Virus record (IMG/VR): IMGVR_UViG_3300025087_000689
Direction: 5' to 3' (one strand)
DNA from: a virus
Lineage: Duplodnaviria > Caudoviricetes
DNA: 64,000 bases
Both the position numbers and the translations under genes were made by a program. Shown one piece after another: positions 1,169 to 63,299 of the stretch (position 1 is its first letter; every line of letters begins with the position of its first letter). The notes below the pieces were generated by a model that was not told the origin of the DNA, did not search any database, and saw only the letters and a list, made by a program, of their open reading frames with translations.

Positions 1169-1765
1169 ATGGCAAAACTATATATAGTTGATCGGTATCC
1201 TGCAGAATACGCGTCTGGTGTATATATTAATGACATGGTGTGGGCACAGTTTTCTGTGCCTATTTCATCTGGAACCGCTACATATTACAACTTCACAGTT
1301 AATGAGAAAAACACATACGATCCAGTAGATGGATCTGTAGAAGTTCGTGGTATTTCTGGTGGACTAAATAATGCTGTTATCGTCTTCATGACGACTAATG
1401 GTTTTAAAAGAAATACAGAATACGCTGTTTTGGCGTCTACAGGATTAAAAGCCAAAGATACTAATGATTATCTAATTGATGATAGCGTGTGGTATTTTAC
1501 CACTGGTACAGGAGTCTATTCTGGATTAATAGGTGGTGTTGACGCTATTGTTCCAAGTGGTATTACAGAAGATAGTACTTCTGGTGTCATTGGTGCTGAT
1601 CCCAGCGGAGCCGCACTTGAAGTAATTGAAACCATTCCAGAAGATTTTGAATCTAACGTTTCACTTTCTCTCCCCTATATTGGTATAAGATTCACTGGAG
1701 TAATTCCAAGTGGGGTTAATTTATACGACCATATTTCTTTAACATCCAAGAAAGTTTTAGGATAA
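1169..1765 (+). CDS. Ig-like (beta-rich) virion protein
   Basis: Beta-rich pattern with 'NTEYAVLASTGLKA...WYFTTG' and 'LEVIETIPEDFESNVSLS...IGIRF', typical of bacterial Ig-like (Big) domains. Confidence 0.55.
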   Translation: MAKLYIVDRYPAEYASGVYINDMVWAQFSVPISSGTATYYNFTVNEKNTYDPVDGSVEVRGISGGLNNAVIVFMTTNGFKRNTEYAVLASTGLKAKDTNDYLIDDSVWYFTTGTGVYSGLIGGVDAIVPSGITEDSTSGVIGADPSGAALEVIETIPEDFESNVSLSLPYIGIRFTGVIPSGVNLYDHISLTSKKVLG

Positions 1766-1766
1766 G

Positions 1767-2804
1767 ATGGCTGTAACACTTACATTTACAAGACCTGTTA
1801 ATTATAACTTATCTTTCTACGAGGTAGGTCAAGCTAGTAGCGAAACGACAGCTTTAACAGTTGTTGCTTCAGGAACTGATATTGGTAGTTTTCCAAGTTG
1901 GATAACACAAGTTAGTTATTCTGGTGCTAATACGTTCTGGTATAGTGTTCGTTTTGGAACTGATGATGGTTCTTATACTGCTTGGTCTTCCAGAATGTAT
2001 GGTAGATATGGTGCTGGTGGTGGATATTTCTTAGTCCAACCATCCGGTTCAGATTGGGTTTATCTTGTACCTCCACAAATTTCTGGTGTTGTGCCCACTT
2101 GGTTAGAATATAATAGTGAATATACAGTTACAATAGATTGTTCTGGACTTTATGCATCCGGCACCAATTATATGCTATCTGATTATGAATTTACTTTTAC
2201 ATCTGAATATTGTCCTCTTTGGTCTACAATGGAATCTGTTAGATTAACAGTGGGACCTCTTATAGATAATATTCCTGATGATACTATTAATCGTATGATT
2301 CATAAAGCGTCTCATCAGGCTATTACAAGATTTCTTATTGGCACCAATGACTTCGGATGTAGTTATACAGATGTACCAGAACCGCTCTATCGATGGGTAA
2401 CATGTGCGGCGGGTACAATGGCTTTAAATGCCGCAATATCATCATCGACTGGATTTGGAAATACAAGTAAAAAACTTGGTCAGTTTGCAGTAACCTATGA
2501 TGCACTAGCCGGGACTAAACCAGCCGAAATTAGAAAGAACTTAAGTGATTGTATGGAAGAAGCTTCGATTTCTATTCAAGCTCTTCAAGGCACTCTTTCT
2601 ATGTATGCTGTAAAATCTCTAGAAAATTCTTACCTACGTCATCCAATGAGAGATCCTCAATGGGGTAGACATCCTCGCAAAGTTGATCAGAGTGTACAGG
2701 GTCCTTGGAGAGGTGCTACTAATGATATTCAAACTTATGAAGCCACGGATGTAATCACATCAGACGAGGTGACCGTACCTTCCGGTGCCATCATATTAAT
2801 TTAA
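1767..2804 (+). CDS. Putative head-tail adaptor (neck) protein with N-terminal beta-rich extension
   Basis: C-terminal half ESVRLTVGPLIDNIPDDTINRMIHKAS...WVTCAA...TSKKLGQFAVTY fits the helical-bundle plus beta-hairpin pattern of head-tail adaptors. Synteny after capsid. Confidence 0.55.
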   Translation: MAVTLTFTRPVNYNLSFYEVGQASSETTALTVVASGTDIGSFPSWITQVSYSGANTFWYSVRFGTDDGSYTAWSSRMYGRYGAGGGYFLVQPSGSDWVYLVPPQISGVVPTWLEYNSEYTVTIDCSGLYASGTNYMLSDYEFTFTSEYCPLWSTMESVRLTVGPLIDNIPDDTINRMIHKASHQAITRFLIGTNDFGCSYTDVPEPLYRWVTCAAGTMALNAAISSSTGFGNTSKKLGQFAVTYDALAGTKPAEIRKNLSDCMEEASISIQALQGTLSMYAVKSLENSYLRHPMRDPQWGRHPRKVDQSVQGPWRGATNDIQTYEATDVITSDEVTVPSGAIILI

Positions 2805-2814
2805 GTGAGGTACC

Positions 2815-61363: not shown

Positions 61364-61365
61364 GA

Positions 61366-61395
61366 TGGAATTTTATACTAGAAAATTAGTATAAA
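61366..61395 (+). promoter_or_regulatory. Promoter-like element with TATACTAGAAAAT spacer
   Basis: TGGAAT-N18-TATAAA. Shares an exact 13-mer with the 46035 element. Confidence 0.55.
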
Positions 61396-61409
61396 TATAT
61401 ACGAGGACT

Positions 61410-63299
61410 TTGATGGATTTTAAATCAATATCATTACTTAGTGGATCTCTTGTAGTTCCAACTTCTGGGGTACCTATTATTGCTTCTGAAGTTCGTGGGT
61501 ATACACCATCGAATTTATTATCCTTCTTAGATCTTACAGATAGCATTTTAGAAAATAATCCCGATTATAATATATATGAGAAGATTTCACCTATTTCTGG
61601 TGTGTATCCTCATGAGTATATATTACCCGAAAAATTTCGCGGTTATAGTTCAGGTTCATTAATCGTTACTGATAGGTCAGTCGAATCACAATTTGTAGAT
61701 TTTAATTTACCTTTGTTTTATGAATACCAGTTGATGTATGATTCTTATTTGATGGATCCTTCATTACCTGATGGATTTTTAATTATCAGAAAAAATTTCG
61801 AATCTCTAGTTAATCCAGATAATTATGTTCTTGAAACTAGACTATTCCCAACCAGTAGTGGCAGATATAGTAGTGATTCTACTTCTGGTTTTCTATGGGG
61901 TACTAGACCTATCTCAGGTAATGTTGTTACATCACGACTTCTTTTACCTGCAAGAGAGAAGGATAATTTTTATACCGTCGAATATAATAAGTATATTAAC
62001 GACACAATTCAAGAACATTACAATGAATTTATTAATGAACAAGTTTTATATAATTCTAATGATTATACTATAACTCCTAGTTCTATTGTTTTAGTGGAGG
62101 GAGGAGATATTGTTTCTGGTGCTATTTTATATGTTCAAAGACAACCAGATTCATATATAAAGATTAAAAGTCCTTTTTACTCTAATGATAAGTCTAAGGT
62201 TTTACCATGGCAATTTCAAGTATCATGTGGTGAGTTTTTATTATCGTCTGGTATTTTTGGTGGAAGTAGGTCTTACTATGTATCTAATGACTACGTGAGT
62301 GGGTACTACGCGAGTGGTCATATAGTTAATTCTGAGATTCCACAGTTTATTAACAAGAATATAATTAAGGTCGGTGTCACTCCTTTATATACGTCTGGTT
62401 CTATATATCCTACTTATTCAGTGTCTAATACTATATTATCAGGCACAATTAATGGCAGGTATATCATAGATAGAATTTCTTCTATTGATTATAATAATGG
62501 TTATATTTATCTTAAACAAGATATCAAACCAACAGATAGTATTCAATTAACTTATATTTATGATTATACGAAGACTATTCTCGCTGGTAGTATTGATCTT
62601 AATCCAAAGAATACAATTAATGCGAATGTCGATATTGCGTTAGATTCTGTTGGACTTGTCGTTGTTCCGTCTGGAACTACATTTTATAACTCTAATTCCG
62701 ATCCAAGTGGATGGAGTTATTTAGCTTATTATCCCATGAGTGATAATATTAGTGGTGATTTCTCAGCTGGTATTACTAAGGGGTACGCTGTTGAAAGTGC
62801 TACTGAAGCAATGATGCAAGGTTGTGTTTCTGGATTAATACCTTCTGGATCTAGGCTGATTGGAATTTTTTCATTAAATTCATTGTCTAATGACATGGTG
62901 AAGGTTTATGATGCTCGTAAATCTGGAGGATATATTTCTAGTGATATTAAGGCTATAAGTGGATGGAGGGGATTTAGTGATATTGGATATTGGGATGGTG
63001 AGCCTTTTCCACATGCTGGAACATTGGTAATACAGATACCTTCTGGAGTATACCGTGAAATATATGAGCTTTTTGATTCAAATACAGAATATACACAACA
63101 AACATCATTATACACACCTGATCTTACCAGGATTATTGAACGGGATGTTTCATCTTATGATAGCAGAGAACAACATATTCATAATGATGTTAAAAAATAT
63201 ATAAGAGACACAATAGAAAGATATTTGCCAGCTGGATTTTTATATATTATAGTTGATGAGAACTTTAATCCGTGGTCTTCTATACGGGGTGAATCCTAA
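61410..63299 (+). CDS. Putative baseplate wedge protein
   Basis: 629 aa, SG-rich. C-terminal YIRDTIERYLPAGFLYIIV resembles the end of gpI/gp7-like wedge proteins. Confidence 0.5.
   Translation: MMDFKSISLLSGSLVVPTSGVPIIASEVRGYTPSNLLSFLDLTDSILENNPDYNIYEKISPISGVYPHEYILPEKFRGYSSGSLIVTDRSVESQFVDFNLPLFYEYQLMYDSYLMDPSLPDGFLIIRKNFESLVNPDNYVLETRLFPTSSGRYSSDSTSGFLWGTRPISGNVVTSRLLLPAREKDNFYTVEYNKYINDTIQEHYNEFINEQVLYNSNDYTITPSSIVLVEGGDIVSGAILYVQRQPDSYIKIKSPFYSNDKSKVLPWQFQVSCGEFLLSSGIFGGSRSYYVSNDYVSGYYASGHIVNSEIPQFINKNIIKVGVTPLYTSGSIYPTYSVSNTILSGTINGRYIIDRISSIDYNNGYIYLKQDIKPTDSIQLTYIYDYTKTILAGSIDLNPKNTINANVDIALDSVGLVVVPSGTTFYNSNSDPSGWSYLAYYPMSDNISGDFSAGITKGYAVESATEAMMQGCVSGLIPSGSRLIGIFSLNSLSNDMVKVYDARKSGGYISSDIKAISGWRGFSDIGYWDGEPFPHAGTLVIQIPSGVYREIYELFDSNTEYTQQTSLYTPDLTRIIERDVSSYDSREQHIHNDVKKYIRDTIERYLPAGFLYIIVDENFNPWSSIRGES

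Follow-up and report, generated by a model that had tools for sequence, protein, structure and literature searches.

Organization of the window and the Ser-Gly excess

The window analyzed here is a stretch of 64,000 nucleotides from the IMG/VR virus record IMGVR_UViG_3300025087_000689 (Caudoviricetes), part of a 221,346-bp contig from a groundwater metagenome. It is the structural module of a jumbo myovirus, and 13 of its open reading frames (ORFs, named below by their first position) encode proteins in which the dipeptide Ser-Gly (SG) is far more frequent than composition predicts. The gene order corresponds to that of Bacillus phage 0305phi8-36 and Moorella phage MTATph1: a block of virion-protein genes (1169-13403) is followed by the tail sheath gene (14925), the genes for the tail tube and its paralogues (17807-21621), three genes for giant proteins (22620-44651), the gene for a baseplate J-like protein (46088) and finally genes for large proteins without a family match, which occupy 47365-63299 and continue beyond. 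All features described lie on the + strand. The contig beyond the window was examined in part, and about half of the genome is covered in all.

The expected number of SG was calculated from each protein's own Ser and Gly content, and z values were obtained from shuffles. Pooled over the 13 SG-rich ORFs, 229 SG were observed against 80.2 expected (observed/expected ratio, O/E, 2.9; z 16.6). SG is the sole outlier among the dipeptides, the next one reaching only z 3.9. The O/E lies between 3.5 and 4.6 in ORFs 47365, 48929, 59747, 61410, 8249 and 1169, and between 2 and 2.7 in seven further ORFs. As GS, TG, NG and DG all have O/E of 0.8-1.2 in the same proteins, the signal is directional and Ser-specific; 28.6% of all Gly residues in the 13 ORFs are preceded by Ser. 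The remaining 15 ORFs of the window contain 64 SG against 61.1 expected.

In the virion-protein block upstream of the sheath gene, ORF 1169 (1169..1765) encodes a 198-amino acid (aa) virion protein with a bacterial Ig-like domain (Pfam Big_5, 35 bits), in which 8 SG stand against 2.0 expected (shuffle z 4.9). Next come a moderately SG-rich protein of 345 aa (1767..2804; 7 SG, 3.0 expected) and one of 1734 aa (2815..8019; 29 SG, 14.3 expected, z 4.2). The SG of the latter fall only in residues 1-556, 1071-1229 and 1416-1582, and its gene occupies, by synteny, the position of the curly-fiber region of 0305phi8-36. The block continues with a 441-aa protein (8249..9574; 13 SG, 3.8 expected, 2 GS, z 5.2), a 451-aa protein that matches phrog_38102, a virion structural protein family (10178..11533; 11 SG, 4.2 expected), and a 573-aa protein with five N-terminal 11-residue repeats, each starting with SG (11682..13403; 12 SG, 6.1 expected).

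The strongest excess lies downstream. Immediately 3' of the baseplate J gene, a 523-aa protein (47365..48936) contains 16 SG, with 3.5 expected (O/E 4.57, z 7.4), and the adjoining ORF 48929 (48929..50953) encodes a 674-aa tailspike-like protein with 30 SG, with 7.3 expected (O/E 4.08, z 9.8). Proteins of 921 aa (50953..53718; 25 SG, 9.3 expected, z 5.8), 1269 aa (53727..57536; 17 SG, 7.9 expected) and 733 aa (57536..59737; 16 SG, 6.2 expected, z 4.3) follow. The second of these is SG-rich over its first 480 residues (14 of the 17 SG in residues 1-476), and the third over its first 300 (13 of 16 in residues 1-299). Last in the window are a 538-aa virion structural protein matching phrog_21059 (59747..61363; 24 SG and 8 GS, 6.0 SG expected, O/E 3.99, z 7.6) and a 629-aa protein (61410..63299; 21 SG, 6.1 expected, O/E 3.47, z 6.7). 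The original prediction, which proposed a pervasive SG enrichment in external virion proteins, relied on hand counts for ORFs 59747, 48929 and 61410 and for the 2355-aa giant protein, ORF 30092, with 12 SG. All four counts are exact, and Ser and Gly composition accounts for the number in the giant protein (O/E 0.99) but not for those in the other three.

Selection on the protein sequence

Both Ser codon families are used at the 229 SG sites (TCN 148, AGY 81). A Ser codon followed by GG is found 229 times in frame; the two remaining frames have 11 and 25 occurrences. A Gly codon comes next after TCT, TCC, AGT and AGC in 24-35% of cases, compared with 6-12% after other NNT codons. A DNA motif is thus ruled out as the origin of the excess, because the motif is restricted to the reading frame and other NNT-GGN pairs stay at background, and the earlier claim that selection acts on the protein holds. 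Since about two thirds of the SG serines are encoded by TCN, the sites are not recent single-step descendants of Asn-Gly or Asp-Gly. A side observation concerns the codons themselves. In the 13 SG-rich ORFs, TCA and TCG precede Gly at background frequency (10%), unlike TCT, TCC, AGT and AGC; the Thr codons ACT and ACA show no comparable split, and in genome G004 of the second lineage described below TCA alone is low. Preference for accurately translated codons where the residue matters may underlie the split, as may an effect of particular tRNAs.

The excess is maintained among homologues. All 19 homologues of ORF 59747, the most distant at 33% identity, have SG O/E of 2.3-4.5, and all 10 homologues of ORF 48929 have O/E of 3.4-4.4. 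In the ORF 59747 family, nine SG columns are occupied in at least 80% of members. Conservation of Ser is 0.65-0.66 within SG versus 0.36-0.45 elsewhere. Homologues at 33-37% identity have 8-9 SG in common and a further 8-9, about half of their 17, at new positions, where composition would lead one to expect about 4. The SG at new positions alone are therefore about twice the composition expectation, indicating that SG density is maintained and not just particular sites. In a 94-kb relative of the window (L001), the genes with SG excess occupy the corresponding positions. No relatives emerged from single-protein searches of IMG/VR that used ORF 48929 or the sheath as query.

Location on outer virion parts and at beta-turns

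The tail sheath (ORF 14925-17795) contains both kinds of region in one polypeptide. Its central insertion, residues 191-515 (15495..16469), carries 12 SG against 3.5 expected. All 12 lie within residues 192-512, in keeping with the clustering in the central insertion that the original prediction had noted, whereas the 631 core residues contain none (3.1 expected); the match to the sheath family spans residues 631-950 only. The conserved tail core as a whole (tube, paralogues, baseplate J and sheath core; 2,826 residues) has 15 SG against 16.0 expected. Taken separately, the tail tube and its paralogues (17807..21621) show O/E of 1.21, 1.58 and 0.79, and the baseplate J-like wedge protein (46088..47365; phrog_6 match, 2.5e-28) has 1 SG against 2.5 expected. 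The three giant proteins of 2490, 2355 and 2431 aa (22620..44651) likewise show no excess (15, 12 and 4 SG; 16.3, 12.1 and 10.8 expected). On the 3' side of the window, the excess persists in some large ORFs and ends at the replication and sugar genes; non-structural genes contain 12 SG, with 19.4 expected. The proposed restriction to outer virion parts was thus borne out: the excess is limited to the sheath insertion, the tailspike-like beta-helix, the Ig-like protein and the genes 3' of baseplate J.

A blastp comparison of the SG-rich ORFs with one another found no mutual similarity at E 1e-3, which rules out a common repeat domain. The enriched regions are of different kinds, comprising a beta-helix, an Ig-like Big_5 domain, the sheath insertion and 11-residue repeats, and the SG excess tracks exposure, not fold.

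Structure models made with AlphaFold2 place the dipeptide at turns. In the model of ORF 48929, residues 1-280 (predicted local distance difference test, pLDDT, 73-95; the C-terminal 390 residues are unreliable) form a right-handed parallel beta-helix that Foldseek matches to phage tailspikes and PL6 lyases (E 2e-4). Seventeen of the 32 inter-strand loops in this model contain or adjoin SG, often as the entire two-residue link, and DSSP assigns SG to strand ends. The model of ORF 59747 is poor (mean pLDDT 59), and only the secondary structure of its better blocks was used. In both models the dipeptide either borders a strand or falls in a two-residue connection from one strand to the next. The residues around the dipeptide conform to [A/P/V]-S-G-[V/T]-[I/Y/L/F], with Ala enriched 2.5-fold and Pro 2.9-fold at position -1; the flanking residues are Ala, Pro or Val before the pair and Val, Thr, Ile or Tyr after it. 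Asp, Glu and Lys are depleted nearby, Asp does not exceed background at -2 or +2, and pairs with acidic residues are low (EG 0.34, SD 0.66, SE 0.78). Taken together, SG is a positively maintained surface motif, [A/P/V]-S-G-[V/T/I]-hydrophobic, located at the turn between two beta-strands on outward-facing virion domains. The N-terminus of ORF 11682-13403 presents a different setting: its five repeats (window 11721-11859) have an exact period of 11 residues, with SG at residues 14, 25, 36, 47 and 58 and hydrophobic residues at repeat positions 4 and 8, unlike the beta-turns elsewhere.

Lineage restriction and a second SG-rich lineage

A baseline of 1,448 ORFs (200 aa or longer) from phages of other lineages gave a pooled SG O/E of 1.19. 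None reaches z 5, and the maximum O/E is 2.57 (ORFs with at least 3 SG expected). T4 has an O/E of 1.08, and its baseplate, sheath and fibers are all near 1. The fibers of 0305phi8-36 have an SG O/E of 0.95, and their leading X-Gly pairs are DG (1.79) and NG (1.56); the virion proteins of this phage verified by mass spectrometry and the MTATph1 module are also near 1 for SG. Unrelated phage structural proteins, a match with which would have explained the excess away, therefore do not share it, and a general property of phage fibers or beta-helices is ruled out by the same comparisons.

A second SG-rich lineage comprises the IMG/VR genomes G004, G005, G007 and G010 and two further contigs, L180 and L181. 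It has a tape measure gene, has no match to the sheath of the window and gives no blastp match to the structural proteins of the window. SG is nonetheless its top dipeptide genome-wide (z 5.9-10.7). The excess lies in genes 3' of the capsid gene and 3' of the tape measure gene, the tape measure itself being without excess. The context is that of the window, [A/P]-S-G-[V/I], with Ala enriched 3.9-fold and Pro 4.9-fold at -1 and Val 3.1-fold at +1 (G004).

A glycan gene cluster and a GT9-GT2 enzyme in the same genome

A search of the genome for glycosyltransferases, suggested along with the original prediction, found many, including one with a domain closest to a protein O-glycosyltransferase. 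A 20-kb glycan cluster encodes five transferase proteins with GT1, GT2 and GT9 domains, namely an 854-aa GT1 protein, probably with an intein, a 659-aa GT9-GT2 fusion and three GT2 proteins. It also contains a sulfotransferase gene, genes for synthesis of 3'-phosphoadenosine 5'-phosphosulfate (PAPS) and genes for an amino-deoxy sugar that is methylated and acetylated. Flippase (Wzx), polymerase (Wzy), priming transferase and oligosaccharyltransferase families are absent from the gene list of the cluster. Transferases without carrier or export genes fit sugars that are built directly on the acceptor in the cytoplasm, which is also the site of virion assembly. The sugar genes are riddled with selfish elements (L014 2289-13695, about 24-35 kb past the end of the window): an intein with a LAGLIDADG domain sits in the C-methyltransferase, a NUMOD3 endonuclease gene interrupts FdtA and divides it into two parts, a HINT trace was noted in the GT1 protein, and the primase-helicase nearby gives an intein signal as well.

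The 659-aa protein matches Pfam GT9 with 31.8 bits (cut-off 22). A profile built from 13 members of its family finds residues 4-160 of the GmaR chain 22ao_A with E 1.1e-13, the best match of all PDB sequences, and also matches the peptide glycosyltransferase SunS (E 5.7e-4) and a generic GT9 structure (E 1.1e-11). The family is widespread in large uncultured phages, with 656 matches and 288 IMG/VR stretches that encode a relative. Among cultured phage records no GT9-GT2 enzyme was found at E 1e-10.

A tree of the enzyme was compared with SG content in 14 whole IMG/VR records that carry the family. The eight phages that lack an SG excess all group together in a single clade (SH-aLRT 99), with both SG-rich lineages outside it. 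For G010, the enzyme clade led us to expect an SG-rich genome before the sequence was inspected, and this proved correct. No gene of the cluster is clearly exclusive to the SG-rich lineages. In non-SG phages, an excess of Thr-Gly is mild and non-directional and affects one or two ORFs per genome. Within the enzyme clade without SG excess, ORFs of 760-980 aa (G006 34126-37050, G008 49229-52165, G009 1-2286 and G014 51483-54113) show a two- to three-fold increase of GS, SG and TG alike; unlike the SG excess, this enrichment in Ser, Thr and Gly lacks direction and is low-complexity-like.

Comparison with known systems

Virion glycosylation by virus-encoded enzymes is already known. In mycobacteriophages, chloroviruses and mimiviruses, structural proteins are decorated in the cytoplasm by virus-encoded soluble transferases, and the coat alters the outward appearance of the particle. 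The mycobacteriophage sites are reported (Freeman et al. 2023) to be in Ser/Thr-rich C-terminal extensions of the capsid and tail tube. The phage described here shares with phage virion glycosylation a set of transferases without lipid-carrier or export machinery in the cluster. It differs from the mycobacteriophages in that its tube is not enriched and in that its motif is a dispersed dipeptide at turns of tail-periphery proteins. We found no published description of an SG excess, or of a dispersed Ser-Gly motif, on outer phage proteins.

We know of no SG preference of GmaR, the best solved-structure match of the GT2 half. The N-terminal domain of this enzyme adds GlcNAc to flagellin in Listeria monocytogenes (PMC9638930). 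Like the enzyme proposed here, GmaR is soluble and glycosylates Ser/Thr of a surface-filament protein before assembly, but its acceptor is flagellin and not a virion protein, and it has tetratricopeptide repeat (TPR) and anti-repressor domains, whereas Pfam recognizes only GT9 and GT2 in the 659-aa phage protein.

A putative parallel is offered by the autotransporter O-heptosyltransferases Aah and TibC, which hyperglycosylate many Ser residues of beta-helix proteins in the cytoplasm (AIDA-I, TibA and Ag43; PMC3835316, PMC4358343). Under the definition of the acceptor motif taken from PMC3835316, the 17 of 32 inter-strand loops of the ORF 48929 model that contain or adjoin SG correspond to it. 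The Aah/TibC enzyme belongs to the heptosyltransferase-like fold group, and the phage protein has a Pfam GT9 domain. The phage enzyme differs in being fused to GT2, and the proposed targets are virion proteins of many folds. Aah has no known sequence consensus. No genes for heptose synthesis, which would supply an ADP-heptose donor, were found in the glycan cluster, and such a donor could come from the host.

The original prediction also drew an analogy to the attachment site of eukaryotic proteoglycans, which is a Ser-Gly dipeptide as well (229 in the 13 ORFs here); a sulfation pathway is likewise present in the genome. The analogy does not extend further. The proteoglycan sequon has acidic neighbors, whereas the phage SG lacks acidic flanks and sits in a hydrophobic beta-strand context, and no xylosyltransferase-type family, which would provide the initiating enzyme, is present in the cluster (GT1, GT2 and GT9 only).

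Interpretation of the Ser-Gly motif

We tentatively favor the view that the SG serines are O-glycosylation acceptor sites for the phage's own transferases, although we give it somewhat less than an even chance. The serines would be O-glycosylated in the host cytoplasm by phage-encoded soluble glycosyltransferases, the 659-aa GT9-GT2 protein with its GmaR-like GT2 half acting together with the neighboring GT1 protein and the other transferases of the cluster, and the outcome would be a sugar coat over the sheath, baseplate periphery, spikes and fibers. A trans-acting reader is favored because it covers at once the use of Ser only, the restriction to outer parts, the spread across folds and the flanking residues shared by two lineages; candidate enzymes are also present. 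The O-glycosylation code suggested in the original prediction thus stands as to the outer SG excess, which is real, and the transferases in the genome, one of them GmaR-like, while we infer the modification of the serines itself, the acting enzyme and the identity of the glycan.

Several observations weigh against glycosylation. [A/P]-S-G is a type I turn with the following Gly. The Gly of SG is at least as conserved as the Ser (0.73-0.75), and the Ser is replaced by Asn, Asp, Glu and Ala besides Thr, a pattern that suits a turn residue better than a strict sequon. The similarity of the enzyme family to TibC is insignificant (E 1.2), and SG is not in excess (O/E 1.37) in Ag43, which is known to be modified by Aah/TibC. 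GT9-GT2 relatives also occur in the eight phages without SG excess, and the association of enzyme and SG, two lineages versus one clade, effectively amounts to one change on the tree. In addition, phage glycosyltransferase clusters can target DNA and glycosylate it (bioRxiv 10.1101/2023.12.21.572611). Part of this evidence is what one would expect if the dipeptide were a purely structural turn grammar, in which outer beta-turns are built as [A/P]-S-G, a type I turn plus Gly bulge, in place of the usual Asp-Gly or Asn-Gly, and unmodified serines serve the fold stability or folding kinetics of beta-rich fiber and spike domains. We consider this structural preference nearly as likely as glycosylation. 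The type I beta-turn with Gly bulge is a common 3:5 hairpin loop, and in proteins at large the position before the Gly is mostly Asp or Asn. The phage motif resembles it in placing x-[P/A]-[S]-G between two strands, as in both structure models, in a Gly more conserved than its neighbor, and in hydrophobic flanks, as expected for strand ends; moreover, SG may fill the role that DG and NG play in the same kind of protein of 0305phi8-36. The motif departs from the common loop in that Ser is used almost alone and only on outer virion parts. The mundane alternative named with the original prediction, a tight-turn preference, is therefore correct as a description, SG being found at strand-turn-strand junctions, but leaves the Ser-only, outer-only and lineage-limited use unexplained. 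It gives no cause for Ser alone, with Thr, Asn and Asp before Gly near 1, and it does not explain how unlike folds (beta-helix, Ig domain, 11-residue repeats) and two lineages without detectable homology come to the same grammar. Turnover at constant density speaks for selection on the number of sites and not only for fixed structural positions, and nothing similar was found in the 1,448 other phage ORFs.

What speaks for a trans-acting reader, namely fold independence, limitation to exposed parts and Ser specificity, applies equally to another Ser-directed event on the assembled particle, such as phosphorylation or acylation, covalent cross-linking, or recognition of the motif by a decoration protein or chaperone. 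The glycan cluster would then serve some other purpose, such as hypermodification of DNA, for which the DNA-glycosylating phage clusters provide a precedent, or alteration of host surface polysaccharide. We regard this as improbable: no kinase, acyltransferase or cross-linking enzyme lies beside the structural genes in the parts examined, genes of the C5-methyltransferase, TET-like or hydroxymethylase type are missing from the flanks of the glycan cluster, and the best matches of the GT2 half are enzymes that modify proteins and peptides. More improbable still is avoidance of chemical damage, in which Asn-Gly and Asp-Gly, prone to deamidation and isomerization, would have been exchanged for inert Ser-Gly in the exposed loops of long-lived particles in cold groundwater. 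The samples are indeed groundwater, and SG takes the place held by DG and NG as leading X-Gly pairs in the relative 0305phi8-36. NG and DG nevertheless persist in the SG-rich proteins (46 NG, O/E 0.82; 55 DG, O/E 1.17) at levels no lower than in the inner proteins (0.65 and 0.69), and no single substitution turns an Asn or Asp codon into the TCN codons used for many SG serines. As NG and DG have not been purged, we largely reject deamidation avoidance.

If the serines are glycosylated, SG would be a sequon readable from sequence, so that sequence would suffice to predict which surfaces of uncultured phages are glycosylated, and the large glycan gene clusters of jumbo phages would be assigned an acceptor. 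The coat would then suggest a shield, with consequences for adsorption, resistance to proteases, adhesion to sediment or recognition by hosts. A wider proposal, which we consider doubtful, is that a dispersed Ser-Gly code at exposed beta-turns directs the GmaR-like, GT9 and GT1 transferases of large uncultured phages in general, that every outward-facing virion domain is thereby coated with a virus-made glycan, here a sulfated, rare-sugar, proteoglycan-like one, and that different enzyme clades read different motifs. If the serines are unmodified, the phage would still present an unusually clean case of lineage- and exposure-specific selection on one dipeptide, which current structural biology does not predict.

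Annotation of the contig and of the tail genes

NCBI attributes the proteins of the 221-kb contig to a metagenome-assembled genome of a 'Patescibacteria group bacterium', although the gene content is that of a jumbo phage; the phage was either binned together with its host or mis-binned. ORFs 18535-19929 and 20122-21621 match PHROG 9206, labeled 'major head protein'. In 0305phi8-36 the same label is attached to gp140 and gp141, yet the record of that phage annotates these as tail tube and tube paralogue. 'Major head protein' is a misleading name here, and both ORFs are tube genes.

The 2490-aa giant tail protein (ORF 22620-30092) contains a LAGLIDADG homing-endonuclease domain near residue 1700 (window 27700-27930; Pfam LAGLIDADG_3 9e-7, Hom_end 1e-4), which probably represents an intein. 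In G004, blastp matches of this protein are confined to large ORFs around the sugar-gene cluster, one of which, the GT1 partner, is itself probably intein-bearing.

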